A DNA stretch of 64,000 nucleotides, taken from NCBI GenBank assembly GCA_034436115.1, contig DAOTVY010000064.1, forward strand, positions 21,235 to 85,234, written 5' to 3'. This DNA comes from Chloroflexia bacterium. GTDB lineage: Bacteria; Chloroflexota; Chloroflexia; DTKN01. The notes below the pieces were generated by a model. The model had not been told where the DNA came from. It searched no databases and saw only the letters and a list, made by a program, of their open reading frames with translations. Made by a program: the position numbers and the translations under genes. Positions 16,914 through 63,515 of this stretch are shown here, piece by piece (position 1 is the first letter of the stretch; the number at the start of each line of letters is the position of its first letter).

Positions 16914-17405
16914 ATGATGAAGGCAAGGACGGTGTTCGTGGTCTTGGGGTTGCTGGCGGTTCTGGGCTGTGCGGGCGGGGCGTTGAAGAAAGGGGATCCT
17001 GCACCGGAGCTGGTGTTGGAAAGTCTGGACGGGAGCACCGTGCGCCTGAGCGACTACCGTGGCCGGCCGGTGCTGATCAACTTCTGGGCCTCATGGTGCG
17101 CGCCGTGCCGTGAGGAGATGCCGGAACTGCAGAAGGTGTTTGCCGCCCAGCAAGCCGACGGCCTCGTGATCCTGGCGGTGAATACGACCTTCCAGGATCG
17201 AGTGGAAGATGTGAGACGCATGCGCACGGAGCTGGGGCTGACCTTCCCGATCCTCCTCGACCGGGACGGCAAGGCGGCGGCCGCCTACCGGGCGAGCGCC
17301 TGGCCGACAAGCGTCTTTGTGGACCGACAGGGACGCGTCCATCTGGTGCAGGTAGGTCCGATGAGCTGGCGCTTTGTGGAGAGCGTGCTCAGGGAGATCC
17401 GGTAG
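16914..17405 (+). CDS. TlpA/ResA-like thiol:disulfide oxidoreductase lipoprotein (redoxin)
   Basis: Lipoprotein signal LAVLGCAGG and a thioredoxin-fold active site WASWCAPCREE. Confidence 0.85.
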   Translation: MMKARTVFVVLGLLAVLGCAGGALKKGDPAPELVLESLDGSTVRLSDYRGRPVLINFWASWCAPCREEMPELQKVFAAQQADGLVILAVNTTFQDRVEDVRRMRTELGLTFPILLDRDGKAAAAYRASAWPTSVFVDRQGRVHLVQVGPMSWRFVESVLREIR

Positions 17406-40237: not shown

Positions 40238-41010
40238 AGCCGAAGGTGGCCGTCTTCGAGTTCGGCTGCTGCGAGGGATGCCAGCTGCAGATCGTGAACC
40301 TGGAGGAGGAGCTGCTCGACCTCCTTGGCGTGGTGGAGGTGGTAACGTGGCGGGAAGCGATGAGCGAGCAGTCCGAGACCTTTGACATCGCCCTGGTCGA
40401 AGGCTCGATCACCCGTGAGGAGGAGATCGAGCGGCTGCGCGGCATCCGAGAGCGGGCGAAGGTGCTCGTGGCCATCGGCGCCTGTGCTTGCATCGGTGGC
40501 ATCAACTGCATGAAGAACCGCTTCGACCTGGAAGAGGTTCGTCGCTACGTCTACGGCGAGCACGCCCAATGGTTCGATACCATCGCCACCCGGCCCCTGA
40601 GTGCGGTCGTCCCGGTGGATGCCGAGGTGCCGGGTTGCCCCATCAACCGCCAGGAACTGGTGGAGATCGTCAAAGCCTTGCTCTTGGGGAAGAGGCCGGC
40701 CTTGCCCACTTATGCCGTCTGCGTCGAGTGCAAGCGCCGCAACAACGTGTGCGTCTTTGACCGGGGCCTGGTGTGCCTGGGGCCGGTCACGCGCGCCGGT
40801 TGCAACGCCATCTGCCCCACTTACGGCAACCGCTGCGTCGGCTGCCGGGGGCTGGTGCCCGACCCGAACCTGAACTCCCATCGTGAGGTGCTCGCCCAGC
40901 ATGGCCTTTCTCCGGAGGACATCCTGCGCTTCTTCCACCTGTACGGGGGGTGCCTGCCGGAGATCGGCTGCCTGCAGGGGGCCTTGGAAGCATCTGGAGG
41001 ACGGCCATGA
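40234..41010 (+). CDS. hydD: [NiFe]-hydrogenase small (delta) subunit
   Basis: MKPKVAVFEFGCCEGCQLQIVN, the NuoB/20-kDa-like proximal cluster ligands. ATGA overlap with the gamma gene. Confidence 0.85.
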   Translation: MKPKVAVFEFGCCEGCQLQIVNLEEELLDLLGVVEVVTWREAMSEQSETFDIALVEGSITREEEIERLRGIRERAKVLVAIGACACIGGINCMKNRFDLEEVRRYVYGEHAQWFDTIATRPLSAVVPVDAEVPGCPINRQELVEIVKALLLGKRPALPTYAVCVECKRRNNVCVFDRGLVCLGPVTRAGCNAICPTYGNRCVGCRGLVPDPNLNSHREVLAQHGLSPEDILRFFHLYGGCLPEIGCLQGALEASGGRP

Positions 41011-42308
41011 AGGATGGGACGATCCACGTCCATTACCTGACCCGTGTGGAAGGCCACGGCAACATCCACGTGGAGGTGGAAGGCGGGGCCCTGAAGGCGT
41101 TCCGCTGGGAGATCCCCGAAGCCCCCCGGTTCTTCGAGGCGATGGTCCGAGGACAGAGCTATGCGGACGTGGCCCATATTGTCTCGCGCATCTGCGGCAT
41201 CTGCTCCATTGGACACACCCTCTGCGCCCTGCAGGCGGTCGAGAACGCGCTGGGCGTGAGGCCTTCCGAGCAGACGGTGCTGCTGCGCAAACTGCTCCTC
41301 CACGGGGAGACGGTGCAGAGCCATGTCCTCCACGCGGGCTACCTTGCAGCGCCCGACTTTTTCGGGGTACCCAGCGTGGTCCCTCTGGTGGCCAGCCATC
41401 GCGAGGCCGTGCTCACGATCGTACGGCTCCATCGCCTGGCCAACGAGTGGTGTGACCAGATCGGCGGTCGGACGACACATCCGATCACCCCGGTGGTGAA
41501 CGGGTGGACCCGGCTTCCGACCCCCGAGGAGCTGGCCAACCTGCGTGCGCGCATCGAGGCCGGGATGGCCGACGCCTGGGCATTGGTGGAGATCTTTCGC
41601 ACGCTTGACATCCCCGATTTTCAGCGTCCTACCGAGTACATTGCCCTGAAACACCCCGAGGAGTATGCGTTCTACGAGGGAGTCATCGCTTCCACCGACG
41701 GCGACACGACCGCCGTGCCGGATTACCGGCAAAAAGTGCACGAGTTCGTTGTGCCGTATTCCACCTCGAAGCGAGCCCGGGCGAACCGCAACTCCTTTGC
41801 TGTGGGAGCCCTGGCGCGTTTCAACAACAACGCCGAGCAGCTTTCCCCCCAGGCGAAAAAGGCTGCAGAAGCGCTCGGGCTGCGTCCGATTTGCACCAAC
41901 CCGTTTCTGAACACCGTGGCTCAGGTGGTGGAAGTCGTGCATGCGCTGGAAGATAGCCTGCGCTTGATCGACCTGCTCCTGGCACGCGGGATCGAGCCGG
42001 AGGTACCTTGGGTGCAGGTGCGCGCAGGCCGGGGTGTGGGGGCGGTCGAGGTGCCCCGGGGCATCCTGTTCCACGAGTATACCCTGGACGAGACCGGGCA
42101 CGTGGTGGACGCGAACATGATCATCCCCACCGGCCAGAACCATCAGAATATCGAGGACGACATGGCCGTCCTGATCCCGCAGATCCTGGACCGGCCGGAG
42201 GAGGAGATCCGCCTGCGTCTGGAGATGCTCGTGCGCGCCTACGACCCCTGCATCTCCTGTTCCACCCACCTGCTGCACCTGGAGCTACGCGGAGGAAAAT
42301 CGCGGTGA
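41007..42308 (+). CDS. hydA: [NiFe]-hydrogenase large (alpha) subunit
   Basis: N-terminal RICGICSIGHTLCA (L1 CxxC) and C-terminal DPCISCSTHLLH (L2 DPCxxC). ATGA overlap with the small subunit. Confidence 0.9.
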   Translation: MKDGTIHVHYLTRVEGHGNIHVEVEGGALKAFRWEIPEAPRFFEAMVRGQSYADVAHIVSRICGICSIGHTLCALQAVENALGVRPSEQTVLLRKLLLHGETVQSHVLHAGYLAAPDFFGVPSVVPLVASHREAVLTIVRLHRLANEWCDQIGGRTTHPITPVVNGWTRLPTPEELANLRARIEAGMADAWALVEIFRTLDIPDFQRPTEYIALKHPEEYAFYEGVIASTDGDTTAVPDYRQKVHEFVVPYSTSKRARANRNSFAVGALARFNNNAEQLSPQAKKAAEALGLRPICTNPFLNTVAQVVEVVHALEDSLRLIDLLLARGIEPEVPWVQVRAGRGVGAVEVPRGILFHEYTLDETGHVVDANMIIPTGQNHQNIEDDMAVLIPQILDRPEEEIRLRLEMLVRAYDPCISCSTHLLHLELRGGKSR

Positions 42309-42799
42309 CGGACCGGCGACGTGCCCCGGTGCTCGTCCTGGGCCTGGGGAATCCCTACTGGGGCGACGATGGCGTAGGGCAGGCGGCGTTGGAAGCGCTC
42401 TCCCGCCGATCGTTGCCCCCTGGGGTGGAAATACGCGATGGCGGCACTGGCGGCCTGCTCCTCCTGGATGTGATCGCCGACCGCGAACACCTGCTGGTGA
42501 TCGACGCCGCCGATTTCGGCGAGGCACCGGGCACGGTTCGTGACTTTTCGCCAGAGGAGGCTGGCCTCTGTCGCGCCGATCGGCCCCTTTCGTTCCACCA
42601 GGCGGGGCTGGCCGAAGTGCTGGATCTTGCGCGCAAGCTCGGCATGGCTCCCCGGAACGTGCACTTATGGGTCGTCCAGCCGGGCCGGTTGGGCCCGGGA
42701 CGTGGGTTGAGTGACCCGGTCCAGGCAGCCCTGCCTGGGTTGGTGGATTCGGTGTGCCGCGCGCTCGGGGCGTTGCTTCCCGAGGCGGCGCGCGTTTGA
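42305..42799 (+). CDS. Hydrogenase maturation endopeptidase (HycI/HoxW family)
   Basis: VLVLGLGNPYWGDDGVGQAA...LLVIDAADFG. A GTG start overlaps the large-subunit stop (GTGA). Confidence 0.8.
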   Translation: MTDRRRAPVLVLGLGNPYWGDDGVGQAALEALSRRSLPPGVEIRDGGTGGLLLLDVIADREHLLVIDAADFGEAPGTVRDFSPEEAGLCRADRPLSFHQAGLAEVLDLARKLGMAPRNVHLWVVQPGRLGPGRGLSDPVQAALPGLVDSVCRALGALLPEAARV

Positions 42800-42811
42800 G
42801 GAGGATAGCCG

Positions 42812-43216
42812 ATGCCAAAGAAGATCCTCGTGGTGGATGACGACCCGGACACGGTCGAAGTGATCCGCCTGACCCTGGAGAGCGCAGGCTATGAGGTAGT
42901 CAGCGCAGCGAGCGGGGAGGAAGGGCTGCGTCGGGTGGTGCAGGAAAAGCCGGACCTCATCATCCTGGACGTGATGATGGATACCACGACCGAGGGGTTC
43001 CACGTTAGCCTGCAGCTGCGGAGCCCTGACCCGGCCTCGCCCTACGCCGATTTCCGGCAGATCCCCATCCTGATGCTCACCGCGATCCACACGACCACGC
43101 CGCTGCGCTTTGCTCCGGATGCGGACTACCTGCCGGTGGACGAATTTGTGGAAAAGCCGATCGCCCCGGAGGCGCTTCTCGCCAAGGTAGAGGCGCTGCT
43201 TGCGGGGAAGAAGTGA
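42812..43216 (+). CDS. Stand-alone response-regulator receiver (CheY-like) protein
   Basis: KILVVDDDPDTVEVIRLTL...DLIILDVMMD...KPI. No output domain. Confidence 0.8.
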   Translation: MPKKILVVDDDPDTVEVIRLTLESAGYEVVSAASGEEGLRRVVQEKPDLIILDVMMDTTTEGFHVSLQLRSPDPASPYADFRQIPILMLTAIHTTTPLRFAPDADYLPVDEFVEKPIAPEALLAKVEALLAGKK

Positions 43217-43697
43217 GGCACGAGCTTTGGGCAAGATCCAGATCGGCGGCATCCTGCAATTTCGGGATCTGGCCTTGATCCAAGTGCTGGGGCTTCCGCA
43301 GAGCGCAGCCGTGGCCACGTTGTTGCGAGCGCTGGGCGACCGCGGGATCCCGGCTCAGGCGGTCGTCCAGTGCCAGGAATCGGGCGGCCGCTACGCCTTG
43401 GCCTTCACCGTGGCCGAGGTGCACCGTGAGGAAGCCCGGGCGATCGTGGAAGAGCTGGCCCGCCGCGGCGGTGCGTGCGAGGTGACCGTGCGCTCGCCGG
43501 TCGGGATGGTGGCCGTCTTCGGGCCCCATTTCCGGGATCGGCCGGCGATCGCAGGTACGATGTTCAGCGCCCTGGTTGCAGCCGAGGTGGAGGTGTTGGC
43601 CATCAGCACCTCGATCTCGACCGTGGCCGGTGTCGTTGTCGCCGAGGAGATGGACCGCGCGGTCGCCATCCTGCGGGCGACGTTTGAGCTCCCATAG
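43200..43697 (+). CDS. Stand-alone ACT-domain protein (aspartokinase regulatory-domain-like)
   Basis: Two ACT-like segments (GKIQIGGILQ...; VGMVAVFGPHFRDRPAIAGTMFSALVAAEVEVLAISTSISTVAGVV). The start codon is uncertain and overlaps the upstream gene end. Confidence 0.55.
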   Translation: MRGRSEARALGKIQIGGILQFRDLALIQVLGLPQSAAVATLLRALGDRGIPAQAVVQCQESGGRYALAFTVAEVHREEARAIVEELARRGGACEVTVRSPVGMVAVFGPHFRDRPAIAGTMFSALVAAEVEVLAISTSISTVAGVVVAEEMDRAVAILRATFELP

Positions 43698-43713
43698 CTT
43701 GCGGCCGGCCTTG

Positions 43714-43722
43714 TGGTAGAAT
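43714..43722 (+). promoter_or_regulatory. Extended -10 element TGgTAGAAT upstream of hdrC
   Basis: A perfect extended -10 about 68 nt upstream of the hdrC ATG (43790), with no good -35. Confidence 0.4.
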
Positions 43723-43789
43723 GTTGCATATTGAGAGATCCTCGGGGCACGGCGGCGCGGTTGGTTCGGGCCCTGACGTGGAGGCATAC

Positions 43790-44362
43790 ATGGTGGAGAA
43801 TCCTCTACTCCGGCTAGATCTGCGCCACAAATCCCTGGCGCAGGCGATCCTGCGCCGGCTCCAGGTGGATGTGCGCGCGTGCTACCAGTGTGGGCGCTGT
43901 ACCGCCGGCTGCCCGGTGGCATATGCGATGGACGCAGGCCCGCACCAGATCCTGCGCGGCATCCAGCTGGAACTGCACGACTGGGTGCTCAGCCGCAATA
44001 CCTACTGGATTTGCGCCAGTTGCGTGACTTGCACCACCCGCTGCCCCTGCGAGGTGGATGTCGCCCGGGTGATGGACGGCCTGCGCGAGCTGGCGCTGCA
44101 GGAAGGCATTCGCCCTTCGGAGCAGACGGTCAAGGTGTTCCACCAGGTGTTCCTGGAGTGGGTGCGCCTGACCGGCCGGATGTACGAGGCGGGCCTGGTG
44201 GGGCTCTACAACCTGCGTTCGCGCGAGTTCCTGGCCAGCGCAGACCTCGTCCTTCCGATGCTGACCCATAACAAGGTCCCCCTCCTGCCCCGGCGTTATC
44301 CTGCCCAGGCGGAGGTCGAGCGCATCTTCGAGCGTGCGCGTGCCCTGGAGGAGAAGCGATGA
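43790..44362 (+). CDS. hdrC: Heterodisulfide reductase subunit C-like (two 4Fe-4S clusters)
   Basis: CYQCGRCTAGCP and CASCVTCTTRCP. ATG after GGAGG. Confidence 0.85.
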   Translation: MVENPLLRLDLRHKSLAQAILRRLQVDVRACYQCGRCTAGCPVAYAMDAGPHQILRGIQLELHDWVLSRNTYWICASCVTCTTRCPCEVDVARVMDGLRELALQEGIRPSEQTVKVFHQVFLEWVRLTGRMYEAGLVGLYNLRSREFLASADLVLPMLTHNKVPLLPRRYPAQAEVERIFERARALEEKR

Positions 44363-45237
44363 CCCGTTACGGCTACTACCCTGGCTGTTCCCTGGAGGGG
44401 ACGGCACGCGAGTACGATGTGTCGACGCGCATTGCCTGCCAGGAGCTGGGGATCGAACTTGTGGAGTTGGAGGGGTGGAGCTGTTGCGGGGCCTCTTCGG
44501 CTCACGCGACCCGTTACTGGCTCTCGCTTGCGCTGCCTGCCCGGAACCTCCGCCTGGCCCAGGAGCAGGGTTTTTCCGCCCTTGTGGCTCCCTGCGCCAT
44601 GTGCTATGCCCGGTTGCGCCATACGCAGCATGCCCTGCGGGATCCCGCGGTACGGGAGCAGGTGAACAGCCTCCTCGATCGGCCCTTGCAGGATGCTGAG
44701 GTCAAGGTGCATTCGCTGGTCGACCTCTTCTCGGAAGAAGAGCGGCTGAACCTGTTGCGCAGCAAGGTGCAGCGCGACCTTTCGGGGCTGCGGCTGGCCT
44801 GCTACTACGGATGTCTGCTCGTGCGGCCCCCGGAGGTTCTGGAGCCGGATGACCCGGAGTACCCCACCATGCTCGACCGGATCGTCGAGGCTGCCGGCGC
44901 TACCGTGGTCGATTGGCCGCTGAAGACAGAGTGCTGCGGGGGTAGCCTGTCCCTGTCCCGCACGGACATCGCGCTCGAGCTCACGCGTCGTCTGCTCGAG
45001 GATGCCCTGTGCCGTGGGGCCAACGGCATCGTCACCGCCTGCCCGATGTGTCACGCGAACCTGGACATGCGGCAGCAGCAGATCAACCGACGGTACGGCA
45101 CCCAACTGGACCTGCCGATCCTTTACTTCACCCAGCTTGTGGGGTTGGCAACCGGACACGCCCCGAAGGAGCTGCTCCTGCACCATCATCTGGTCGAACC
45201 CTGGTCGCTTCTCGCCCAGGCCGGCATTCCGGCATAG
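44359..45237 (+). CDS. hdrB: Heterodisulfide reductase subunit B-like (two CCG domains)
   Basis: YYPGCSL...CCGAS...CAMC and YYGCLLVRP...CCGGS...CPMC. Confidence 0.9.
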   Translation: MTRYGYYPGCSLEGTAREYDVSTRIACQELGIELVELEGWSCCGASSAHATRYWLSLALPARNLRLAQEQGFSALVAPCAMCYARLRHTQHALRDPAVREQVNSLLDRPLQDAEVKVHSLVDLFSEEERLNLLRSKVQRDLSGLRLACYYGCLLVRPPEVLEPDDPEYPTMLDRIVEAAGATVVDWPLKTECCGGSLSLSRTDIALELTRRLLEDALCRGANGIVTACPMCHANLDMRQQQINRRYGTQLDLPILYFTQLVGLATGHAPKELLLHHHLVEPWSLLAQAGIPA

Positions 45238-45255
45238 GGCATGGGAGGTCGTTCG

Positions 45256-47283
45256 ATGGCCCGAGTCGGCGTTTTCGTCTGCCATTGCGGAAGCAACATC
45301 GCGGCGACGGTGGATGTGGCCAAGGTGGCCGAAGAAGCGGTCAAGATGGACCACGTCGTGTATGCCACGCACTACGTGTACATGTGCTCTACCCCGGGGC
45401 AGGAGTTGATCCAGCAAAAGATCCAGGAGTACCAGCTGGACCGGGTAGTGGTGGCGGCCTGTAGCCCGCGGATGCACGAGCGCACCTTCCGCAAGGCCAC
45501 CGCTCAGGGAGGGCTGAACCCCTACCTGATGGAACAGGCGAACATTCGGGAACACGATTCGTGGGTGCATGCGGACATCCCGGTGGCCACGGAGAAGGCG
45601 ATCGAGATCGTGCGCATGGCGGTGGCCAAGGCGGTGGGGCTGGCCCCCCTGGAAGCGGCCCAGGTGGGGATCACGAAGCGCTGCCTGGTGATTGGCGGCG
45701 GCATCGCCGGGGTGCAGGCGGCGCTGGATGTGGCCGAGGCCGGGTATGAGGTGGTGATCGTCGAACGCGAGCCCTCGCTGGGCGGGCATATGGCCCAATT
45801 GGACAAGACCTTCCCCACCCTGGACTGCTCAGCCTGTATCCTCACACCAAAGCTTGTCGACGCGGCCCAACACCCCAAGATCAAACTCTATACCTATTCC
45901 GAGGTAGTCGGCGTCAAGGGCTTTGTGGGGAATTTTCAGGTGACCATCCGGCGCAAGCCCCGTTACGTGGACGAAAAGCTCTGCACCGGGTGCGGCATCT
46001 GCTGGAACAGCTGCCCGCTGCGCCCGCGGGTGCAGGAGGACGGCACGGTCAAGGGCGGCTTCCCTTCCAAGTTCGAGGCCAACCTGGGCCGCCGGGCGGC
46101 CATCTATGTGCCCTTTGCCCAGGCGGTGCCGCTCGTGCCGGTGATCGATACGGAGCACTGCACCTGGTTCGTGAAGGGGGGCAAGTGCGGGCTCTGCGCG
46201 CAAAAGTGCCCACGGGGTGCGGTCAACTATACCCAGAGCGAGGAATTGATCACCGAGCCCTTTGGGGCAATCATCGTTGCCACCGGATTCGACCTGTTCG
46301 ACGCGCGGGCCCTAGGCGAGTACGGCTACGGACGGTACCCGGATGTGATCACGGGCCTGGAACTGGAACGGTTGATGAACGCTTCCGGGCCGACGCACGG
46401 CCACGTCCTGCGCCCTTCCGACGGCCGGCCGCCGAAGACGGTGGTGCTCGTCTCGTGCGTGGGCTCGCGCGATGAGAAGATCGGCCGGCCGTACTGCTCG
46501 GTCGTCTGCTGCATGTACCTGGCCAAGCACGCCATCATGCTCAAAGAGCACGACCCCGAGGTCGAGGTCTATAACTTTTACATGGACATCCGCGCCGGTG
46601 GCAAGGACTATGACGAGTTCACGCGCCGCGCGATCGAGCAGTACGGTGCCCACTACCTGCGCGGACGCGTCTCCCAGGTCTACGAGCGGGATGGGAAGTT
46701 GATCGTCGAGGGAGTGGACACGCTGATCGGCCGGCCGGTGGAGATCCAGGCCGATCTGGTGGTGCTCGCCACCGGCATCACTGCCCCTGAGGGGGCACGC
46801 GAGCTCTTCCAGACGCTGAACATCTCCTATAACCAGTACGCCTTCATCAACGAGGCCCATCCGAAGCTCCAGCCGGTCGAGACGAACACCGACGGGATCC
46901 TCCTGGCTGGTTGCGCGACTGGCCCCAAGGATATCCCCGCTACCGTGGCCCAGGCGAGCGGGGCTGCTGCCAAGGCGATCGGCATCCTTTCCAAGGAGAC
47001 GCTGATCGCCAACCCGATGGTCGCGGAGGTGAACGAGCGCGAGTGCGTGGCCTGCCAGCTGTGTGTCCAGGTGTGCCCCTATCGCGCGATCGAGATGACC
47101 ACCACCCGGCGCGGTAAACCGGTGGCCCACGTGAACCCCAGCGTCTGTAAGGGTTGTGGTCTCTGCGTGAACGCCTGCCGCGGTGGGGCGATCAACCTGA
47201 AAGGCTTTACCGATCAGCAGCTGGTCAGCCAGGTGAGCGCTCTCCTCGCCGAACCACTGGCCGAGGTCCTGGACGAGCGCTGA
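45256..47283 (+). CDS. hdrA: Heterodisulfide reductase subunit A-like flavoprotein (FAD + multiple Fe-S)
   Basis: CLVIGGGIAGVQAALDVAEAGYEVVIVE dinucleotide fold. Several CxxCxxC(P) ferredoxin motifs and an N-terminal CHCG...C cluster. Confidence 0.9.
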   Translation: MARVGVFVCHCGSNIAATVDVAKVAEEAVKMDHVVYATHYVYMCSTPGQELIQQKIQEYQLDRVVVAACSPRMHERTFRKATAQGGLNPYLMEQANIREHDSWVHADIPVATEKAIEIVRMAVAKAVGLAPLEAAQVGITKRCLVIGGGIAGVQAALDVAEAGYEVVIVEREPSLGGHMAQLDKTFPTLDCSACILTPKLVDAAQHPKIKLYTYSEVVGVKGFVGNFQVTIRRKPRYVDEKLCTGCGICWNSCPLRPRVQEDGTVKGGFPSKFEANLGRRAAIYVPFAQAVPLVPVIDTEHCTWFVKGGKCGLCAQKCPRGAVNYTQSEELITEPFGAIIVATGFDLFDARALGEYGYGRYPDVITGLELERLMNASGPTHGHVLRPSDGRPPKTVVLVSCVGSRDEKIGRPYCSVVCCMYLAKHAIMLKEHDPEVEVYNFYMDIRAGGKDYDEFTRRAIEQYGAHYLRGRVSQVYERDGKLIVEGVDTLIGRPVEIQADLVVLATGITAPEGARELFQTLNISYNQYAFINEAHPKLQPVETNTDGILLAGCATGPKDIPATVAQASGAAAKAIGILSKETLIANPMVAEVNERECVACQLCVQVCPYRAIEMTTTRRGKPVAHVNPSVCKGCGLCVNACRGGAINLKGFTDQQLVSQVSALLAEPLAEVLDER

Positions 47284-47298
47284 TTTCGGGAGGACAAG

Positions 47299-47733
47299 AT
47301 GTCCGAACCGTTCGAACCCCGGATCGTCGGATTCCTGTGCAACTGGTGCTCCTACGCGGGCGCCGACCTGGCGGGCACCTCTCGTATCCCTTACCCGCCG
47401 AACATCCGTATCATCCGCGTACCCTGTTCCGGCCGGGTGGACCCGATGCTGGCCATGAAGGCCTTCCTGGAGGGGGCGGACGGGGTGATCGTCCTGGGCT
47501 GCCATCCAGGCGACTGCCACTATAGCGAAGGCAACTACCACGCCCGCCGGCGGCTGGTCCTCTTCCACCGCCTGCTCGAGTTTTTCGGCGTCGAGCGCGA
47601 TCGTTTCCGCCTGGACTGGGTGTCCGCCTCCGAGGGGGTTCGTTTCGCCCAGGTCGTGGGCGAGTTTACCGAGGCGGTGCGGCGGTTGGGGCCGCGGCGC
47701 CGGCCCGAGGCCGTTCTCGAAGGGTCGCGATGA
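47299..47733 (+). CDS. mvhD: MvhD/FlxD-type [2Fe-2S] electron-transfer subunit
   Basis: IVGFLCNWCSYAGADLAG...RVPCSGRVDP...VLGCHPGDCHY. Confidence 0.85.
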   Translation: MSEPFEPRIVGFLCNWCSYAGADLAGTSRIPYPPNIRIIRVPCSGRVDPMLAMKAFLEGADGVIVLGCHPGDCHYSEGNYHARRRLVLFHRLLEFFGVERDRFRLDWVSASEGVRFAQVVGEFTEAVRRLGPRRRPEAVLEGSR

Positions 47734-50121: not shown

Positions 50122-50511
50122 GTGACCACTCGTGCGCAAGACTGGCTCCGTCAGGCCGTACGGGATCTGGAGCACGCCATCGACTCGCAGGGGTTGGGGC
50201 GACACGAATGGGCCTGCTTTGCCGCACATCAGGCCGCCGAAAAGGCCGTGAAGGCCCTCCATTTGCACCATGGTCAGGAGGCCTGGGGGCACCTGGTGGC
50301 CAGGCTCCTTCGAGAGTTGCCCGGGGCGGTCATAGTTCCTGCGATGCTCGTCGAGCAGGCTCGCGTGCTGGATACGTTTTACATCCCCACCCGCTATCCC
50401 AACAGCCATCCGGAGGGGCCGCCCTTCGAGCATTATGGCCCTCTGCAGAGCGAGGAGGCGATCCGTTATGCCCGTGCGATCGTTGAGTTCGTCCGTTCTC
50501 AAATGGCCTGA
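50122..50511 (+). CDS. HEPN-domain protein (putative toxin of a HEPN/MNT pair)
   Basis: A GTG start follows GGGGAGGTGG. Rx4H motif in TRYPNSH. An all-helical ~129-aa protein. Confidence 0.7.
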   Translation: MTTRAQDWLRQAVRDLEHAIDSQGLGRHEWACFAAHQAAEKAVKALHLHHGQEAWGHLVARLLRELPGAVIVPAMLVEQARVLDTFYIPTRYPNSHPEGPPFEHYGPLQSEEAIRYARAIVEFVRSQMA

Positions 50512-50860
50512 TGCCCGGGAGGTCGTGGCCGCGGTACAGCGTTGGGCGGAGCGTAAAGCCCGGGAACACCCGGAGGTCGTGCGGATCGGGTACCTGGGTT
50601 CTTACGCGCGCGGCGATTGGGGTGTCGGCAGCGATGTGGATCTGCTGATCCTTGTCGAGCATTCTGGTGTTCCCTTCGAAGGCCGCGGTGCCCAATGGGC
50701 ACCGGACGAACTACCCGTTCCGGCCGACGTGCTGGTCTATACGCTGGCCGAGTGGCAATCCCTTCCCCGGGAGGGGCGGTTCTATCGCACCGTGATGCGC
50801 GAGGCGGTGTGGGTTTGGGAGCGCGGCACCGGAGAATCCCGGGGGCAACCCGAGGAGTGA
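50468..50860 (+). CDS. Minimal nucleotidyltransferase (MNT; putative antitoxin partner of HEPN)
   Basis: GSYARGDWGVGSDVDLLIL is the GS-x9-DxD polymerase-beta-like NTase motif. It overlaps the HEPN gene 3' end. Confidence 0.7.
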   Translation: MPVRSLSSSVLKWPDAREVVAAVQRWAERKAREHPEVVRIGYLGSYARGDWGVGSDVDLLILVEHSGVPFEGRGAQWAPDELPVPADVLVYTLAEWQSLPREGRFYRTVMREAVWVWERGTGESRGQPEE

Positions 50861-56159: not shown

Positions 56160-57017
56160 ATGTATCGCCTGGATGCCCTGGACCGCCAGATCATTCTACA
56201 TTTGCAGCGCGACGGGCGTATTCCCTATGTAGAGTTAGCTCGTTTGGTAGGGGTAAGTGAGGCTACTGTCCGGAGGCGGGTAGAGCGTCTGATTGCGGAA
56301 GGGGTGATCGAGGTTGTCGCCTGTGTCGAGCCGCGCAAGGTGGGGCTGGGAGTCGAAGCGCTGGTCTACCTCCAGGCAGAGTTGGACAAGCTGACGCACA
56401 TCGGCCAGACCCTGGCGGCCATGCCGGAGGTGCGGGAGGTGATTTACACTTCCGGGGCGCACGATCTGGTGCTGCGGGTGGCGCTGGCCTCGAACGATGA
56501 CCTTTTGCCCTTCCTGACCCGCCGGGTGGCGACGATTCCGGGAGTCAAGGCGACCCAAACCTCCTACGTTCTGCAGACGGAAAAGCACATCCACGATTGG
56601 CAGCTGCCGGAGCGGCCGGTGGCTCCGCAGCCATCTCAGGCCCGGCCCTTGATCCTGGTGGTGGATGACGACGCCGACTTTTGTGCTGCGGCCAGCATGG
56701 TGCTGGAAGCTGAGGGCTATCAAGTGATGGCCTCCTGCAATGGGCGAGAGGCAAAGGCCATATTGCAGGAGCAGACGCCAGCGCTGATCCTGCTGGATCT
56801 CATGATGGAGACGCCACTGGCCGGGCTGGAGGTATTGCAGGCCGTACGGGACGACCCACGTCTCTGTGGGATCCCTGTGCTGGCCATTTCGGCTATTCGC
56901 TCGAGCGAATGGGCAAGCGCCATCCCATCGCCGGAACAGCTGCCTTTCGACGGCTTTGTGGACAAGCCGATCGAGCCAGGGCTGCTCCTGGAGAAGGTGC
57001 ACCGACTGGTCGGCTAG
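56160..57017 (+). CDS. Lrp/AsnC-family transcriptional regulator (HTH + RAM domain) fused to a C-terminal receiver-like domain
   Basis: The N-terminus LDRQIILHLQRDGRIPYVELARLVGVSEATVRRRV is an AsnC HTH. The C-terminus LILVVDDDADF...ILLDLMME...KPI is REC-like. Confidence 0.75.
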   Translation: MYRLDALDRQIILHLQRDGRIPYVELARLVGVSEATVRRRVERLIAEGVIEVVACVEPRKVGLGVEALVYLQAELDKLTHIGQTLAAMPEVREVIYTSGAHDLVLRVALASNDDLLPFLTRRVATIPGVKATQTSYVLQTEKHIHDWQLPERPVAPQPSQARPLILVVDDDADFCAAASMVLEAEGYQVMASCNGREAKAILQEQTPALILLDLMMETPLAGLEVLQAVRDDPRLCGIPVLAISAIRSSEWASAIPSPEQLPFDGFVDKPIEPGLLLEKVHRLVG

Positions 57018-57035: not shown

Positions 57036-58754
57036 GTGCAAATCGAGCGCTACCATTTCCCGGAGGATCGTTTCTACGACCGCCAGCACAATTGGGTGCG
57101 AATCGAAGACGGCCTGGTCGTTCAGGGATTGTCCGACTATGCCCGCCAGTCCAGAGGGCCGGTGCTTTGCCTGGATCTGCCTCGCCCTGGGCGATGGGTC
57201 GCGCGGGGTGAACCGTTGACAGTTCTGGAGGCGGAGCAAGGGATCATCCGCGTCCTTGCGGCTGTCAGCGGCGAGGTGGTGGCGATCAACGAGCAGCTAC
57301 GCGACAATGCCGGCCTGGTGTACGAGGATCCCTACGAAGCGGGCTGGCTGGTGAAACTCTGTCCCACCTCTCCCGAGGAGCTCGCGCAGTTGACCCGCCC
57401 GGACGATCCGGCATTCAAGGAGTGGTTCCTGGTCTGCCTTTCTGGGGAGATCTCGCGCCAACTGGGCCGCCCGGAACGGGAGGTGCTCTCCCTGCGGCGG
57501 GACCTGGAGCGTGCCTATCATCGGCTGGAAACGCTTTACCAGATCGGCCGGGCCACGACCTCGACGATCCATCTGGAGCAAGTGCTGCAAATGGTCGTTC
57601 GTCTGACTGCCGAGGCGCTTGACGCCAAGGGATGCTCCATTCGCCTTCTGGACGATAGTGGCCAAATCTTGCGGATTGTAGCGGCCTGGGGTCTGAGTGA
57701 TCAGTATCTGCAGAAGGGACCGGTGGAGGTACGGCACAGCCTGATCGATCAGGAAGCACTCCGGGGCAAGCCGGTGATCGTGCTGGAAGCGCCTTTGGAT
57801 CCCCGGTTCCAGTACCCGGAAGAGATCGAGCGAGAGGGCATCTGTTCCGTCCTGTGCTGTCCGCTGATGGTACGGGGGCAAGCCATTGGCGTGATCCGGA
57901 TCTACAGCGCGGCCTGCTATCGCTACGGCCAGGAGGAAGCCGACTTCTTGATGACGATTGCCAGCGAGGTGGCGGTGGCGATCGCGAACGCGATGGCCTA
58001 CCGGAAGCTGGAAGAGATCGACCGGGCCAAGTCCCAGTTTGTCCTCACGGTTACCCATGAGCTTCGCTCGCCTGTGGCCACGGTACAGAGCCTCCTGCGG
58101 GTCATTTCGGGCGGGTATGCAGGCCAGGTATCCTCCAAGCAAAAGGAACTGATCGAGCGGGCCGAACGCCGGATCCTCTTCCTGCAGCAGCTGATCGACG
58201 ACCTTCTGGACCTCGCTGCGGGGAAAACGGAACATCTCACGGAGACCCCGCGACCGGTGACGGTGAATCCGGTTGTGACCAAAGTGGTCGCCCAATTGCG
58301 CCCGGTGGCCGAGGAAAAGTCGTTGGATCTGCGGGTCTATGTACCCCACGAGGCCCTTTCCGTCCTCGCTGTAGAGGACGGAATGGAGCGCATCGTGGTC
58401 AACCTGGTGGGCAATGCGATCAAGTACACGCTTCCCGGGGGGCGCGTCGAGGTCACCCTGGAGCGCCGCGGGAACGAGGCCGTGTTGATCGTGTCCGATA
58501 CCGGCATTGGTATCCCGCAGGATGCGCTGCCCCATCTGTTCGAGGAGTTCTTTCGGGCGGAGAATGCCCGGGCGATCGAGCGGGAAGGTACCGGCCTGGG
58601 CCTTTCGATCGTCAAGAACCTGGTCGAGCGGTACGGAGGCAGGATCGCAGTGGAAAGCCAGCTGGGCCAAGGGTCGACCTTCACCGTGCGCTTCCCGCTC
58701 CTGGGGACCGGAACGGTCGATGGCGGAATTCGTAAGGAAACGTCATTATCATGA
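57036..58754 (+). CDS. Histidine kinase with N-terminal glycine-cleavage H-protein (GcvH)-like domain lacking the lipoyl-lysine, followed by GAF, HisKA and HATPase_c
   Basis: The N-terminus YDRQHNWVRIEDGLVVQGLSDYA...AVSGEVVAINEQL...EDPYEAGWLVKL matches the GcvH fold, with ESVK replaced by EAEQ. H-box TVTHELRSPVATV. Confidence 0.75.
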   Translation: MQIERYHFPEDRFYDRQHNWVRIEDGLVVQGLSDYARQSRGPVLCLDLPRPGRWVARGEPLTVLEAEQGIIRVLAAVSGEVVAINEQLRDNAGLVYEDPYEAGWLVKLCPTSPEELAQLTRPDDPAFKEWFLVCLSGEISRQLGRPEREVLSLRRDLERAYHRLETLYQIGRATTSTIHLEQVLQMVVRLTAEALDAKGCSIRLLDDSGQILRIVAAWGLSDQYLQKGPVEVRHSLIDQEALRGKPVIVLEAPLDPRFQYPEEIEREGICSVLCCPLMVRGQAIGVIRIYSAACYRYGQEEADFLMTIASEVAVAIANAMAYRKLEEIDRAKSQFVLTVTHELRSPVATVQSLLRVISGGYAGQVSSKQKELIERAERRILFLQQLIDDLLDLAAGKTEHLTETPRPVTVNPVVTKVVAQLRPVAEEKSLDLRVYVPHEALSVLAVEDGMERIVVNLVGNAIKYTLPGGRVEVTLERRGNEAVLIVSDTGIGIPQDALPHLFEEFFRAENARAIEREGTGLGLSIVKNLVERYGGRIAVESQLGQGSTFTVRFPLLGTGTVDGGIRKETSLS

Positions 58755-58770
58755 CGGAATCCGTCTTTTT
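58752..58770 (+). terminator. TGACGGAATCCGTC palindrome (copy 2 of 3) followed by TTTTT; a weak intrinsic terminator or operator
   Basis: Begins with the kinase stop codon. A 5-6-bp stem (GACGG/CCGTC) plus a T5 run. Confidence 0.45.
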
Positions 58771-58791: not shown

Positions 58792-58820
58792 TTGACAAAT
58801 GTCCCGGATTGTGCTATGAT
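58792..58820 (+). promoter_or_regulatory. Promoter TTGACA-17-TATGAT for the HdrD-like operon
   Basis: Consensus hexamers. Flanked and overlapped by direct repeats TTGTCCCAGGATT / ATGTCCCGGATT. Confidence 0.55.
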
Positions 58821-58856: not shown

Positions 58857-60209
58857 ATGGCGCTAAAGACGTTCGACCTCACCCGCGAGATGTTGGACCA
58901 TGCCTTCCCGGATGTTGTTGCTCCGGATAAGGAAAGGCTGCTGACTTGCATCCAATGTGGCACCTGTACGGCTTCCTGTCCAACCGCCTATGCGATGGAT
59001 TACACGCCTCGCCAGCTGTGGCGCCTGATTCAGGTCGGTCTGCGCGAGGAAGTCCTTCTGAGCAATTCGTTTTGGCTTTGTGCGGCCTGTTATGCGTGCA
59101 ACACGCGTTGCCCTCGCGGCATCCCCACCATGGAGACGATGCTAGAGCTGAAGGTGCTGGCATCGCGCGAACGGGGCGTGATGCCGCTTCCGCTGCGAGA
59201 GCGCTGCCAGCTGGTGGCGGGCACGCACAACGTAGCCGGAGAAGACAACGCCCTCCGGCTCTCCTGGGCGCTCAACCTGCCGGGGGGAAGTGGACGGTAT
59301 ACCGGGCCGCGCCGGGCAGAACTTGCCTACTTTGTTGGGTGCTATGCGGCCTTTTTCCCGCTGGCTTTCGGTGTGCCCCAGGCGATGGTGCACTTGCTCG
59401 AGCATCTGGGGCTTTCGTTCACCACGCTGGGCACGGAAGAGTGGTGCTGTGGCTACCCTTTGCTCGTCGCCGGCCGGCGCGAGGAGGCGGCAGCGCTGGC
59501 GCGTCACAATCTGGAGGTAGTGGAGCAAACGGGCGCCTCACGTCTGGTTACGGCCTGTGCGCATTGTTACCGTGTCTGGCGGGAAATCTACCCCCAGCTC
59601 CTGCCCGGCCGGAGCATTCCTCCGGTGGAGCACTCGAGCACCCTGCTCCTGGAGGAGTTCACTCGCCAGGGGATTGCTCCTTTCCCCGTGGAGGCCGTCG
59701 TCACCTTCCACGACCCCTGCGATCTAGGCCGGCAGGCAGGGCTGTACGAGCCGCCGCGGAGGCTTTTGGAAATGATCCCGGACCTGAAGCGGATCGAGAT
59801 GGCCAACTCGGGCGAGGGGGCCATCTGCTGTGGCGGGGGAGGGAACCTGCCCTGGTTGCGGGACGATGTGGTCATGGAACTGGGCCGTCGGCGGCTTGGA
59901 CAGGCGCTCGATGTACGCGTGAGCGCCTTGATCACCGCTTGCCAGCTATGCCGTCATACCTTAAGTCGGACGGCTTACCGCTGGGGGGCGCGTTTGCGGG
60001 TTTACGATCTGGTCGAGCTGGTTTGGAGCGCTCTCTCGGCACAGCCGCTCGACATTCCTGGAGCGAGGTGGCCCACTGTGCGCCATCCGGGCGCCTCGTC
60101 CCTTGGCGCCTGTTCCGAGCCGCCTTCTGGGTTCACCGGAGGGCCGCGCCCTCCGGAGGGTGGGGAACAGACCGCGCAGGCGGGCGATGATCGGGGGCCG
60201 GCCATCTAG
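58857..60209 (+). CDS. HdrD-like fused Fe-S oxidoreductase (N-terminal HdrC-like 2x[4Fe-4S] + two CCG domains; GlpC/LutA/DsrK-type)
   Basis: CIQCGTCTASCP and CAACYACNTRCP, then CCGYP...CAHC and ICCGGGGN...CQLC. Confidence 0.75.
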   Translation: MALKTFDLTREMLDHAFPDVVAPDKERLLTCIQCGTCTASCPTAYAMDYTPRQLWRLIQVGLREEVLLSNSFWLCAACYACNTRCPRGIPTMETMLELKVLASRERGVMPLPLRERCQLVAGTHNVAGEDNALRLSWALNLPGGSGRYTGPRRAELAYFVGCYAAFFPLAFGVPQAMVHLLEHLGLSFTTLGTEEWCCGYPLLVAGRREEAAALARHNLEVVEQTGASRLVTACAHCYRVWREIYPQLLPGRSIPPVEHSSTLLLEEFTRQGIAPFPVEAVVTFHDPCDLGRQAGLYEPPRRLLEMIPDLKRIEMANSGEGAICCGGGGNLPWLRDDVVMELGRRRLGQALDVRVSALITACQLCRHTLSRTAYRWGARLRVYDLVELVWSALSAQPLDIPGARWPTVRHPGASSLGACSEPPSGFTGGPRPPEGGEQTAQAGDDRGPAI

Positions 60210-60291
60210 TGCGGGTCGAGCCACCGATGGTTTGGAGTCGTGGAGGATACAGGGCTCTTTCCGCAAGAAGTTCTGGAGGAGGTAAGCTACC

Positions 60292-60879
60292 ATGGCCCTT
60301 CAGTCGTTCAACCTGACCCGGGAGATGCTTGACCACTCCTTCGCCGAAACGGTAGCCCCGGACCGGGAGAAGCTGCTCACCTGCATCCAGTGCGGCACTT
60401 GCACCGCTTCCTGTCCTACCGCTTACGCGATGGAGTACACGCCGCGGCAGCTCTGGCGGCTGATCCAGGTGGGGCTACGCGACGAGGTGCTGCAGAGCGA
60501 TACCTTCTGGCTCTGCACGACTTGCTACTCGTGCACCATCCGCTGCCCGCGCGGCATCGCGGTCACCGAAACCATGGCCACGTTGAAGCGGCTCTCGGTT
60601 GCCGAGGGCGTGGAGAAGAAGGACCGTAGCGCGCGCTTCTACGAAAGTTTCATGGAAGTGGTCCACGATACCGGGCGTATGCACGAGACGCTCTTGATGT
60701 TGCGCTGGCTGCTGAAGACGAATCCGCTGCAGGCCTTTTCCTTCGCCCGGCTAGGCCTGGCGCTCCTGCGCAGGGGGAAGATGCCGCTGCGGCCCACGCG
60801 CATCCGAGGGCTGGACCAGATCTGGGCGATGTACGACAAGGTGCGCGAGATGGAGCAGAAGGAGGAGATCCTGCGATGA
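60292..60879 (+). CDS. HdrC-like 4Fe-4S protein (copy 2)
   Basis: The first ~85 aa are about 85% identical to the N-terminus of the upstream HdrD-like protein. CIQCGTCTASCP and CTTCYSCTIRCP. Confidence 0.8.
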   Translation: MALQSFNLTREMLDHSFAETVAPDREKLLTCIQCGTCTASCPTAYAMEYTPRQLWRLIQVGLRDEVLQSDTFWLCTTCYSCTIRCPRGIAVTETMATLKRLSVAEGVEKKDRSARFYESFMEVVHDTGRMHETLLMLRWLLKTNPLQAFSFARLGLALLRRGKMPLRPTRIRGLDQIWAMYDKVREMEQKEEILR

Positions 60880-61754
60880 AGTACGCTTACTATCCCGGCT
60901 GCACGTTGGAAACGGCTGCGCGCGAGTACGATGTCTCAGCCCGCGCGGTCTTTCGGGAATTGGGAGCGGAACTCGCTCCGATCCCCGACTGGAGCTGCTG
61001 CGGTTCGTCTCCAGCCGAATCGGTGGATTACCTGCTTTCCATCGCCCTGCCTGCCCGGAACCTGGCCCTGGCCGAGCAGATGGGCCTCGACATCATCGCG
61101 ACCTGTAGCTCCTGTTACCTGAGCCTCTTCAAAGTGGAGAAACATTGTCAGCGGGATCCTTCCTTGAGGGCTCGTTTGAGCGAGATCCTGGGCGCAGCCG
61201 GCCTGACCTACCAGGGCAAGGTACGGGTTCGCCACATGCTCGACGTCATCGCCAACGATATCGGTCCGGAAAAGATCCAGGCCCGGATGCGGCGCAGCCT
61301 AAGAGGACTCCGCGTGGTGCCCTACTACGGTTGCCAGACGGTGCGCCCGTTCATGGAGTACGATGGTCCCGATCTTCCCGAGTCGATGGACCGGCTTCTG
61401 GCGGCGATGGAAGCTGACGTCGTGCCCTATCTCTATAAGACGCGCTGCTGCGGTGGCATTCTGATCACTTCGACCAGAGACGTGGGCATTAAGCTGGTGT
61501 CCGACCTCCTGGCCGAGACCGATGGGGCCGACTGCGTCGTGACCGTTTGCCCTCTATGCCAGATGAACCTGGATGCCTACCAGGCAGAAGTCTCCCGGAA
61601 ACTCGGGCGCCGGGTGAACATTCCCGTGCTCTACCTGACGCAGCTGATGGCTCTGGCTTTCGACCTTCCGGATAGCGAGATCCTGCTTCAGAGGAACATT
61701 GTCTCGCCCAAGCCGGTGCTGGAAAAGCTGGGCATGCTCGGAGGGGGACGGTAG
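60876..61754 (+). CDS. HdrB-like CCG-domain protein (copy 2)
   Basis: YYPGCTL...CCGSS...CSSC and YYGCQTVRP...CCGG...CPLC. ATGA overlap with hdrC2. Confidence 0.85.
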   Translation: MKYAYYPGCTLETAAREYDVSARAVFRELGAELAPIPDWSCCGSSPAESVDYLLSIALPARNLALAEQMGLDIIATCSSCYLSLFKVEKHCQRDPSLRARLSEILGAAGLTYQGKVRVRHMLDVIANDIGPEKIQARMRRSLRGLRVVPYYGCQTVRPFMEYDGPDLPESMDRLLAAMEADVVPYLYKTRCCGGILITSTRDVGIKLVSDLLAETDGADCVVTVCPLCQMNLDAYQAEVSRKLGRRVNIPVLYLTQLMALAFDLPDSEILLQRNIVSPKPVLEKLGMLGGGR

Positions 61755-61800: not shown

Positions 61801-62205
61801 ATGAATCGGATGAAACTGCGGGAGATTGTCGAGATCGTCGAGGGCACGCCGGTGTTTGAAACCGACCTGGATCTCGAGATCGGTTGCGGTGCTGCAGCGG
61901 ATCTGATGAGCGATGTGCTGGCGCTGGTGGAGCCGGGTGCCGTGTTGCTGACAGGGCTGTGTAATCCGCAGGTGGTGCGTACGGCGGAAATGGCCGACAT
62001 CACGGCCATCGTCTTTGTCCGCGGCAAGCAGCCGATGCCGGAGACCATCGCCCTGGCCAAGGAGAAGGGCATTCCGCTGGTGACCACCGCGCTTCCGATG
62101 TTCGAAGCCTGCGGACGGCTTCATCAGGCCGGCCTGCGGAGCTGCGATATCTCCTGTCGCATTCCCTGGCGGACCCCGGATGGCCCGGACGAGCTATCCC
62201 AGTAG
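61801..62205 (+). CDS. DRTGG-domain protein
   Basis: IGCGAAADLMSDVLA...VLLTGLCNPQVVRTAEMADITAIVFVRG...PLVTT matches the DRTGG fold seen on phosphotransacetylase N-termini. Confidence 0.6.
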   Translation: MNRMKLREIVEIVEGTPVFETDLDLEIGCGAAADLMSDVLALVEPGAVLLTGLCNPQVVRTAEMADITAIVFVRGKQPMPETIALAKEKGIPLVTTALPMFEACGRLHQAGLRSCDISCRIPWRTPDGPDELSQ

Positions 62206-62211
62206 GTTGCG

Positions 62212-63150
62212 ATGGCCGAGATCACCCGTCTTCAGGAACTTGCCTACGAGGTCAAGATCGGAGAGGTGATGACGAAGGACGTAGTCACGGTAACGCCTCA
62301 GAATACCATGGCCGAGCTCCGGGTGATCCTGCGCGACCACCGCATTTCCGGTGCACCTGTCGTGGAAGGCGGGGAACTGGTGGGGATCATCAGCGTCGAG
62401 GACCTCATCAAGGCACTGGCGGCCGGCGAGATGGATGCCCAGGTGGGGACGAAGATGACTCCTCGCCCGGTGACGGTTCGGGCCGACGAATCGGTCGTGA
62501 TGGCGATCCGCTACTTCAACCGACATGGGTACGGCCGTTTCCCTGTGGTGGATCGCGCAGGGAAACTGGTCGGCATCCTCACCCGGGGGGATATCATCCG
62601 CGGGCTGCTCAAGCAACTGGAGATGGAATACCATCGCGAGGAGGAGCTGCGCTATCGGTTCAGCCACATCTTCGAAGAACTGATTTCCGATCTCACCAGC
62701 ATTACCTTGCGTTGCCGGGTGGAGGCTCAGGACTTTGACCGTGCCGGTGAGGCCTCCAGCAAGATCAAGCGGGCGCTCACCCGCCTGGCGGTTGCCCCGC
62801 AGCTCGTCCGGCGGGCGGCGATCGTTACCTACGAACTGGAGATGAACATCATCATCCACACCACGGCAGGCGGCGAGATCCTGGCCGAAATCCAGCGCGA
62901 CCGGATCATTATCCGGGCGATCGACAGCGGTCCGGGCATTCCGGATATCGAGCAGGCGCTGCAGCCGGGCTTCTCCACCGCTCCGGACTGGGTGCGAGAG
63001 ATGGGGTTTGGGGCCGGCGTGGGGCTGAACAACGTGCAGCGTTGTGCGGACGAGATGTTGATCGAGTCGCCGGGTGCCCAGTGGACCTCTGTGAAGGTGG
63101 CGATCTACCTGAATCGGGAGTGCCTGGAGGCCGGGAAAGCGGCGGCCTGA
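62212..63150 (+). CDS. CBS-pair + GHKL (anti-sigma-factor/RsbW-like HATPase) protein
   Basis: Two CBS motifs (VMTKDVVTV..., ISGAPVV...LVGIIS; MTPRPVTV...GKLVGILTRGDII). The C-terminus AIVTYELEMNIIIHT...IRAIDSGPGIP...GFGAGVGL is HATPase_c_2-like. Confidence 0.7.
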   Translation: MAEITRLQELAYEVKIGEVMTKDVVTVTPQNTMAELRVILRDHRISGAPVVEGGELVGIISVEDLIKALAAGEMDAQVGTKMTPRPVTVRADESVVMAIRYFNRHGYGRFPVVDRAGKLVGILTRGDIIRGLLKQLEMEYHREEELRYRFSHIFEELISDLTSITLRCRVEAQDFDRAGEASSKIKRALTRLAVAPQLVRRAAIVTYELEMNIIIHTTAGGEILAEIQRDRIIIRAIDSGPGIPDIEQALQPGFSTAPDWVREMGFGAGVGLNNVQRCADEMLIESPGAQWTSVKVAIYLNRECLEAGKAAA

Positions 63151-63167
63151 TGCAGGGAGGCCGGGCG

Positions 63168-63515
63168 ATGAAGCTGGAAACGGTGGTTCGGGAACTTGCC
63201 CTGGAGGTCCGCAGCGCCGCAGGGAATCTGGGGCGCGAGGTCACCGGCGGTTACGCCGCGGACCTGTTGAGTTGCGTCATGGCTCGGGCTCAGCCCGGGA
63301 ATATCTGGGTTACGCTCCAGGGCCATCCGAACATCGTTGCCGTGGCCAGCCTCCTGAACCTGGCGGCCATTGTGGTGACCGAGGGCGTTGCACCTGACCC
63401 GGCGACCCTTTCCAAGGCCGAGGAGGAAGGCATCCCGATCCTGACCACACCGCTCACCACGTATACCGTGGTGGGAAGGCTCTTTGGATTGGGCATCCGG
63501 GGGCCGGAACGGTGA
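63168..63515 (+). CDS. DRTGG-domain protein (paralog 2)
   Basis: ATG after AGGGAGG. TGGYAADLLSCVMARAQPGNIWVTLQGHPNIVAVASLL...ILTT. Confidence 0.65.
   Translation: MKLETVVRELALEVRSAAGNLGREVTGGYAADLLSCVMARAQPGNIWVTLQGHPNIVAVASLLNLAAIVVTEGVAPDPATLSKAEEEGIPILTTPLTTYTVVGRLFGLGIRGPER

Follow-up and report, generated by a model that had tools for sequence, protein, structure and literature searches.

Textbooks describe HdrD as an HdrC-HdrB fusion, and anaerobes commonly have genomes with many Hdr paralogs. This composition has been described for HdrD of the methanogen HdrDE enzyme and for HdrD-like proteins (PMC9012536), and sHdr-LbpA is known as a sulfur-oxidising Hdr-like system (PMC6067878). Here, we analysed a locus of a Chloroflexia bacterium in which a fused HdrD-like gene is followed by separate hdrC2 and hdrB2 genes. 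It occupies positions 58857 to 61754 of a stretch of 64,000 nucleotides, hereafter called the window (assembly GCA_034436115.1, contig DAOTVY010000064.1, positions 21,235 to 85,234 of the forward strand). An original prediction had drawn attention to the near identity of the N-termini of the HdrD-like protein and HdrC2. This finding is real but ordinary: it is an ancient domain paralogy under strong purifying selection. The genes and their parts are arranged as follows.

58857-60209, plus strand: HdrD-like soluble iron-sulfur protein, 450 aa from ATG, with an HdrC-type ferredoxin domain and two CCG domains
58857-59150, plus strand: N-terminal HdrC-type domain (N domain) of the HdrD-like protein, residues 1-98
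59340-59567, plus strand: first CCG motif of the HdrD-like protein (C162...C197C198...C234xxC237; Pfam CCG)
59718-59951, plus strand: second CCG motif of the HdrD-like protein (C288...C324C325...C362xxC365; Pfam CCG)
60057-60206, plus strand: low-complexity C-terminal tail of the HdrD-like protein, residues 401-450 (50 residues, rich in Gly, Pro and Ala)
60292-60879, plus strand: HdrC2-type protein, 195 aa
60292-60606, plus strand: HdrC2 ferredoxin domain, residues 1-105, with two CxxCxxCxxxCP motifs
residues 106-195 of HdrC2: C-terminal arm with no counterpart in the HdrD-like protein
60876-61754, plus strand: HdrB2-type protein, 292 aa, with two complete CCG motifs (Pfam CCG, twice)

All three open reading frames (ORFs) were found at the coordinates given in the original prediction, and the locus indeed holds a fused form (Fer4 dicluster plus two CCG domains) and a split form (HdrC, HdrB) of the same domain composition. 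The HdrD-like protein starts with MALKTFD, as do its relatives. Its N domain carries two CxxCxxCxxxCP motifs, C31-P42 (58947-58982) and C75-P86 (59079-59114), and is matched by the Pfam family Fer4_8 (residues 28-89) as well as by Fer4_17 and Fer4_9; two CCG domains follow (1.2e-32). All eight ferredoxin cysteines are located at identical positions in the HdrD-like protein and HdrC2, every cysteine motif is intact in the fused and the split forms, and both CCG motifs are complete in the HdrD-like protein as in HdrB2. No hydrophobic segment was found in any of the three proteins. The C-terminal tail of the HdrD-like protein is lineage-specific, being missing or different in the closest relatives, and is predicted to be disordered (predicted local distance difference test score, pLDDT, about 30). 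HdrC2 has the size, the two [4Fe-4S] motifs and the C-terminal arm of a bacterial HdrC2-type protein, and its gene lies directly upstream of hdrB2, the start codon of which overlaps the hdrC2 stop codon (ATGA). The same hdrC-hdrB pairing is present in the loci L084 and L085.

Like HdrD-type proteins, the fused protein of the window therefore combines an N-terminal two-[4Fe-4S] domain with two CCG domains and complete cysteine motifs. Unlike in HdrDE, no gene for an HdrE-type membrane cytochrome b is adjacent (the neighbours encode a histidine kinase and HdrC2), and the genomic partner of the HdrD-like gene in relatives is hdrA. Its N domain is also unusually close to free-standing bacterial HdrC (72-80%), which sets it apart from HdrD in general. 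CoM-S-S-CoB is unlikely to be the substrate of this protein in a Chloroflexota bacterium.

We then determined the extent of the N-terminal likeness. BLASTP aligned residues 1-105 of the HdrD-like protein and HdrC2 without gaps (73% identity, E 6e-56), but found no significant alignment past residue 105. The similarity is thus far beyond chance. The predicted figure of ~85% identity over 85 residues is nevertheless too high: we counted 66/85 identical residues (77.6%) for positions 1-85 and 77/105 (73.3%) for positions 1-105, and a value of 83.1% (54/65) holds only for residues 1-65, the stretch that had actually been spelled out. At the DNA level, the two segments are 71-75% identical, with 48% identity at third positions and a longest identical run of 11 nt. 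Our own implementation of the Nei-Gojobori method returned a proportion of synonymous differences (pS) of 0.68-0.70, which is saturated (Jukes-Cantor dS about 1.8-2.0), a dN of 0.12-0.18 and a dN/dS ratio of 0.06-0.10. The original prediction was therefore right in stating that the DNA has diverged at synonymous sites and that the duplication is old and conserved.

The N-terminal sequence noticed initially, FNLTREMLDHSFAETVAPDREKLLTCIQCGTCTASCPTAYAMDYTPRQLWRLIQVGLR, turned out to be the consensus of the whole bacterial HdrC2-type family and is conserved across phyla. Over residues 1-98, HdrC2 shares a mean identity of 80% with 121 other HdrCs, and the N domain of the HdrD-like protein shares 72% with the same 121 proteins (maximum 79.6%). 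Its identity with the neighbouring HdrC2 is 75.5% over 98 aa, so that several foreign HdrCs are closer. An exhaustive phmmer search with residues 1-98 of the HdrD-like protein against 1.84 billion (1.84e9) representatives returned HdrC-type proteins of 180-196 aa as best matches (78, 76 and 67% identity); among proteins of at least 400 aa, the top match had only 53% identity. Over 100 homologs match HdrC2 along its full length; they come from Chloroflexota, Acidobacteria and Dehalococcoidia and are 57-93% identical to it, and full-length orthologs of HdrB2 fall into the same range. Since the consensus is shared family-wide and foreign HdrCs are closer than the HdrC2 encoded next door, the likeness is a property of the family and not special to this gene pair. 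The two N-termini resemble each other because very strong purifying selection acts on this domain in the whole bacterial HdrC2-type family, and they are probably anciently diverged paralogous copies of an HdrC-type ferredoxin domain binding two [4Fe-4S] clusters. The suggestion of two enzymes sharing an interchangeable Fe-S entry domain is plausible in functional terms, although the likeness is not peculiar to the pair.

The split pair resembles the methanogen HdrABC-MvhAGD complex (PDB 5odc, 8rvu, 7bkb): HdrB2 aligns over its full length with the solved HdrB chains (E 1e-49 to 1e-51), the N domain of HdrC2 aligns with HdrC (E about 1e-21 to 1e-23), and the window also contains hdrA together with mvhD-like and NiFe hydrogenase genes. 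In contrast to this complex, the host is a bacterium, the hdrC2-hdrB2 pair is located 13 kb from the full-length hdrA, and the profile scores stay below the curated equivalog cut-offs. HdrC2 and the N domain of the HdrD-like protein reach 98.3 and 92.5 bits with the HdrC profile TIGR03290 (cut-off 160 bits) and are therefore homologs, not equivalogs, of methanogen HdrC; HdrB2, a clear homolog of methanogen HdrB, reaches 197.9 bits with the HdrB profile TIGR03288 (cut-off 345 bits).

The CCG half of the HdrD-like protein belongs elsewhere. It shares only 27% identity over 90 aa with the neighbouring HdrB2 (E 0.006) and scores 29 bits with the HdrB profile. The best NCBIfam matches of the HdrD-like protein are TfrB (E 8.5e-41), GlpC (6e-30) and LdhH (7e-29), with no family cut-off reached. 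Its best solved relative, both by sequence (phmmer E 6e-28, CCG half) and by predicted fold, is mycobacterial EtfD: an AlphaFold2 model of the protein (pLDDT 76) found EtfD (9ojn) as best Foldseek match, with a query TM-score (TMq) of 0.70 over 442 aligned columns. The fold also matches HdrB and LutA, and the HdrB and HdrC chains rank well behind EtfD. In its CCG half and its fold, the window protein thus resembles EtfD of Mycobacterium smegmatis (PDB 9ojn), TfrB and GlpC; EtfD differs from it in being a membrane protein of 1042 residues, the first cluster motif of which barely aligns with the N domain of the window protein (2 bits). The HdrD-like family is large. With E<=1e-10 as the limit, 1095 of the scored candidates belong to it, and at least 592 loci were confirmed among species-representative genomes, nearly all from Chloroflexota. 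In most of its members, no hdrCB of the window type lies next to the fused gene. Taken together, these data indicate that the fused gene was neither made from the neighbouring hdrC2-hdrB2 genes nor their source.

Two other origins of the likeness can be judged on this basis. Apart from the likeness itself, nothing suggests an assembly artefact or a very recent duplication or conversion. We checked for the identical DNA that an assembly duplication implies and found 71-75% identity instead; the saturated synonymous sites and the lack of an identical run above 11 nt likewise exclude that duplication or conversion took place recently. Nine contigs, independent of each other and taken from JGI, Logan and NCBI assemblies, moreover carry the identical protein and locus, and the arrangement is kept in the related genomes L001 and L086, so that we regard the chance of such an origin as negligible. 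The second origin is the snapshot of a gene fusion or fission that the original prediction had proposed, that is, a recent joining of copies of the neighbouring hdrC2 and hdrB2 or the splitting of a copy of the fused gene. The identical domain composition, the adjacent position of the genes on the same strand and the high N-terminal identity would be expected in this case. But the CCG halves belong to different subfamilies (27% over 90 aa, 29 vs 198 bits, TfrB/GlpC/EtfD-like in the fused protein), the fused protein contains nothing that corresponds to the HdrC2 arm (residues 106-195), and its family is old, has many members and usually occurs without such neighbours. In addition, many phyla contain full-length orthologs of HdrC2 and HdrB2 (57-93% identity), and the synonymous sites are saturated. 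A fusion or fission snapshot is therefore very improbable.

A more serious competitor concerns the history of the N domain itself. From the sequence comparisons, we lean towards the view that the window clade kept this domain by vertical retention from the family ancestor. Alternatively, the 5' end of the HdrD-like gene could have been overwritten in the ancestor of the window clade by an hdrC2-type gene, possibly the adjacent one, both copies having become saturated since. Several observations speak for such an ancient replacement or conversion, and hence against retention. On average, the N domain of the window clade shares 72% identity with HdrCs but only 58.5% with its counterparts in other HdrD-like proteins; for residues 1-28, the difference is larger (60% vs 34%). 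As described above, the top matches of the exhaustive search have the length of HdrC, with the best fused protein at 53%, and the physical proximity of hdrC2 offers an opportunity for exchange. In a neighbor-joining (NJ) tree of the 98-residue domain (own numpy implementation, Kimura distances, 500 bootstraps), the fused proteins of the window clade were placed inside the HdrC clade with bootstrap values of 66% and 76%. At the family-signature positions, 5/7 states are HdrC-like and 2/7 HdrD-like, numbers too small to decide. The nesting in the NJ tree and these signature states both agree better with a later domain replacement than with plain vertical retention.

On the other hand, an N-domain identity to other HdrD-like proteins below the value expected from overall divergence, which would prove replacement, was not observed: within-family pairs with 44-48% identity in the rest of the protein share 52.6% in the N domain, and the 58.5% of the window clade is as predicted from this or slightly more. 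The HdrC-like signature states also occur in 1-19% of the other HdrD-like proteins, so that a slowly evolving lineage keeping ancestral states fits equally well. Furthermore, the HdrC2 of the same genome is not the closest HdrC, no tract of low dS was found, and 98 conserved residues provide weak phylogenetic resolution. The window, L001 and L086 have the full gene order in common. Among them, identity amounts to 78-82% for the fused protein and to 92-93% for HdrC2 and HdrB2, and the orthologs are themselves saturated at synonymous sites. The same 19 differences between the two paralogous domains are fixed in all three genomes, and therefore no exchange has taken place since they diverged. In other loci with an HdrD-like gene and hdrCB, at which we looked for signs of concerted evolution, hdrC belongs to another, more distant type that shares 30-45% identity with HdrC2. 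Overall, we consider an ancient replacement a distinct but rather doubtful possibility and prefer vertical retention.

The genes around the locus in the window, together with two putative expression signals, are listed below.

40950-42308: NiFe hydrogenase large subunit
43721-44362, plus strand: hdrC1
44359-45237, plus strand: hdrB1
45241-47283, plus strand: hdrA, full length
47314-47712: MvhD/FlpD-like gene
56160-57017, plus strand: AsnC-type HTH/receiver regulator
57036-58754, plus strand: histidine kinase with an N-terminal GcvH-like domain, then GAF, HisKA and HATPase domains
57036-57440, plus strand: GcvH-like domain of the kinase (Pfam GCV_H, 1e-24)
58753-58765: terminator-like hairpin behind the kinase stop codon, ahead of the HdrD-like gene
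58792-58820, plus strand: promoter-like site before the HdrD-like gene, TTGACA-17 nt-TATGAT, TG-extended, with 11/12 consensus matches (a consensus match only)
61801-63515, running past 64000, plus strand: DRTGG / CBS+HATPase / DRTGG triad, then HATPase and PHP genes

The HdrD-like gene is preceded by a promoter-like site and no terminator-like site was seen between it and hdrC2, which makes cotranscription of the three genes plausible. Judging from these signals, hdrD-like, hdrC2 and hdrB2 probably form one transcription unit. Although the two N-terminal segments are only 1.4 kb apart in one putative operon, their third-position GC content differs (0.69 in 58857-59171 of the HdrD-like gene, 0.87 in 60292-60606 of hdrC2). 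We also looked for similarity between the 5' untranslated regions of the HdrD-like gene and hdrC2 and saw none. The region 40950-47712 contains the genes for the NiFe hydrogenase, a maturation protease, HdrC1, HdrB1, HdrA and the MvhD/FlpD-like protein and represents a classical Mvh/Hdr-type cluster. Its hdrC1-hdrB1-hdrA genes are a second, divergent set, HdrC1 sharing only 37-41% identity with HdrC2 and with the N domain of the HdrD-like protein.

In related loci, hdrA lies immediately downstream of the HdrD-like gene in 26/67 cases with enough downstream sequence; FlpD/MvhD genes are present in 28 related loci, and 11/79 contain a gene for a lipoate-protein ligase. A standalone GcvH-like gene (about 143 aa) immediately upstream of the HdrD-like gene was found in L013, L021, L028, L030, L033, L053 and in the cluster of L087 (region 4823-10248), with the lipoyl lysine kept (ESGKWVGR). 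The cluster of L087 encodes, in this order, a NiFe hydrogenase, a protease, a receiver, a GAF kinase, DRTGG, CBS/HATPase and DRTGG proteins, HypA, a lipoate-protein ligase, the GcvH-like protein, the HdrD-like protein, HdrA, MvhD-Fer4, Fer4_22 and an NAD-binding protein. Orthologs of most of these genes are present in the window, with no match to the L087 ligase in a tblastn search of the window. The place of the standalone GcvH-like gene is taken by the GcvH-kinase fusion, which is also present in L001 and L086. The GAF-kinase part of this fusion is 45% identical to the separate GAF kinase of L087, and its GcvH-like domain carries Gln in the window and Arg in L001 at the position of the lipoyl lysine. 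The gene order in the relatives suggests a lipoyl-protein-linked HdrD/HdrA system. We found no description of such a cluster in the literature on GcvH with HdrD or HdrA in Chloroflexota, which is weak negative evidence only.

This arrangement is reminiscent of sHdr-LbpA. As in that system, two HdrC/HdrB pairs and HdrA are encoded in one region, a GcvH-like (lipoate-binding-protein-like) element is tied to an Hdr-type enzyme, and relatives of the window locus add a dedicated lipoate-protein ligase. But there is no contiguous hdrC1-hdrB1-hdrA-hyp-hdrC2-hdrB2 operon: mvhD-like, Fer4, toxin-antitoxin and signalling genes stand between C1B1A (43.7-47.3 kb) and C2B2 (60.3-61.8 kb). In the window, the GcvH-like domain forms part of a kinase and has no lipoyl lysine, the search for a ligase gave no match, and the context is that of a hydrogenase and mvhD. 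For want of a contiguous operon, a lipoyl lysine and a ligase, we ruled out that the locus represents an sHdr-LbpA system.

Based on these comparisons, the HdrD-like family could act as the disulfide-reductase head of HdrA-type flavin-based bifurcating complexes, replacing HdrBC. In each of the two enzymes, an HdrA-type flavoprotein would pass electrons via the N domain on to the CCG domains, whose non-cubane [4Fe-4S] clusters would be the site of disulfide reduction or dithiol oxidation. The HdrC-type N domain of the fused protein would then have the same docking and electron-relay role as HdrC, and the need to dock on HdrA would explain why the whole domain stayed HdrC-like, including the first 28 residues, which bind no cluster. 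This presumed docking derives from gene neighbourhood, and the fact that the HdrD-like gene does not adjoin a full-length hdrA in the window genome argues against it. The transcription unit would provide two alternative disulfide-reductase heads for nearby HdrA/NuoEF-type modules, and the genome as a whole might have three (C1B1, the fused protein and C2B2).

The observations can be extended to a four-part scenario. The HdrC-type entry domain may be exchangeable and, in the clade ancestor, an hdrC2-type gene may have supplied it anew to a CCG body of the TfrB/EtfD type; the Chloroflexota HdrD-like family may form the disulfide-reducing head of a bifurcating complex that is based on HdrA and has so far not been described; the substrate of this complex may be the lipoyl group of the dedicated GcvH-like protein; and in the window clade this partner may have been left without its lipoyl lysine and turned into the input domain of the GAF histidine kinase, which may sense the state of the HdrD-like enzyme as a decoy substrate. 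Taken as one claim, this scenario is improbable.

Given that HdrC-HdrB fusions are textbook matter and Hdr paralogs common, the N-terminal likeness as originally noticed adds little. A modest addition is a widespread family of soluble HdrD-like proteins in Chloroflexota with an N domain 60-80% identical to free-standing bacterial HdrC and often with an adjacent hdrA. The HdrC-like N domain together with the hdrA neighbour argues that fused and split heads can share a docking and relay module on HdrA-type bifurcating flavoproteins. The lysine-less GcvH-like domain on the kinase and the GcvH/lipoate-ligase/HdrD-like/HdrA clusters of the relatives are more interesting than the likeness itself. 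To our knowledge, a partnership of lipoate and Hdr proteins is so far known only from the sHdr-LbpA system. If the link to the GcvH-like protein is true, this partnership would extend beyond sulfur oxidisers, and the kinase would provide an example of a substrate protein recruited as a sensor domain.

Some further genes of the region are worth mentioning. The DRTGG/CBS+HATPase/DRTGG triad downstream of hdrB2 is regulatory-looking and conserved beside HdrD-like genes in the distant relatives L020, L024, L032, L035 and L087. A HEPN/nucleotidyltransferase (NTP_transf_2) pair, a putative toxin-antitoxin system, is located at about 50122-50860 (L080 1266-2004) between the Fer4_22 and the NAD-binding/DHODB genes, which adjoin each other in L087. 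About 7.3 kb downstream of the start of the HdrD-like gene and outside of the window, L080 contains an ORF (17258-18108) resembling the N-terminus of HdrA (E 9e-79 to residues 1-191 of HdrA2). Where its FPTLDCSxCIL motif should have the cysteine, there is an in-frame TGA, past which the ORF reads on into a Fer4 segment, so that it encodes a probable selenocysteine-containing, truncated HdrA-like protein. Downstream of it are genes for a NuoE-like protein, a 2Fe-2S ferredoxin and a NuoF/GltD-like protein (>1038 aa), and the split HdrA-like ORF pair of L080 is also present in L086.

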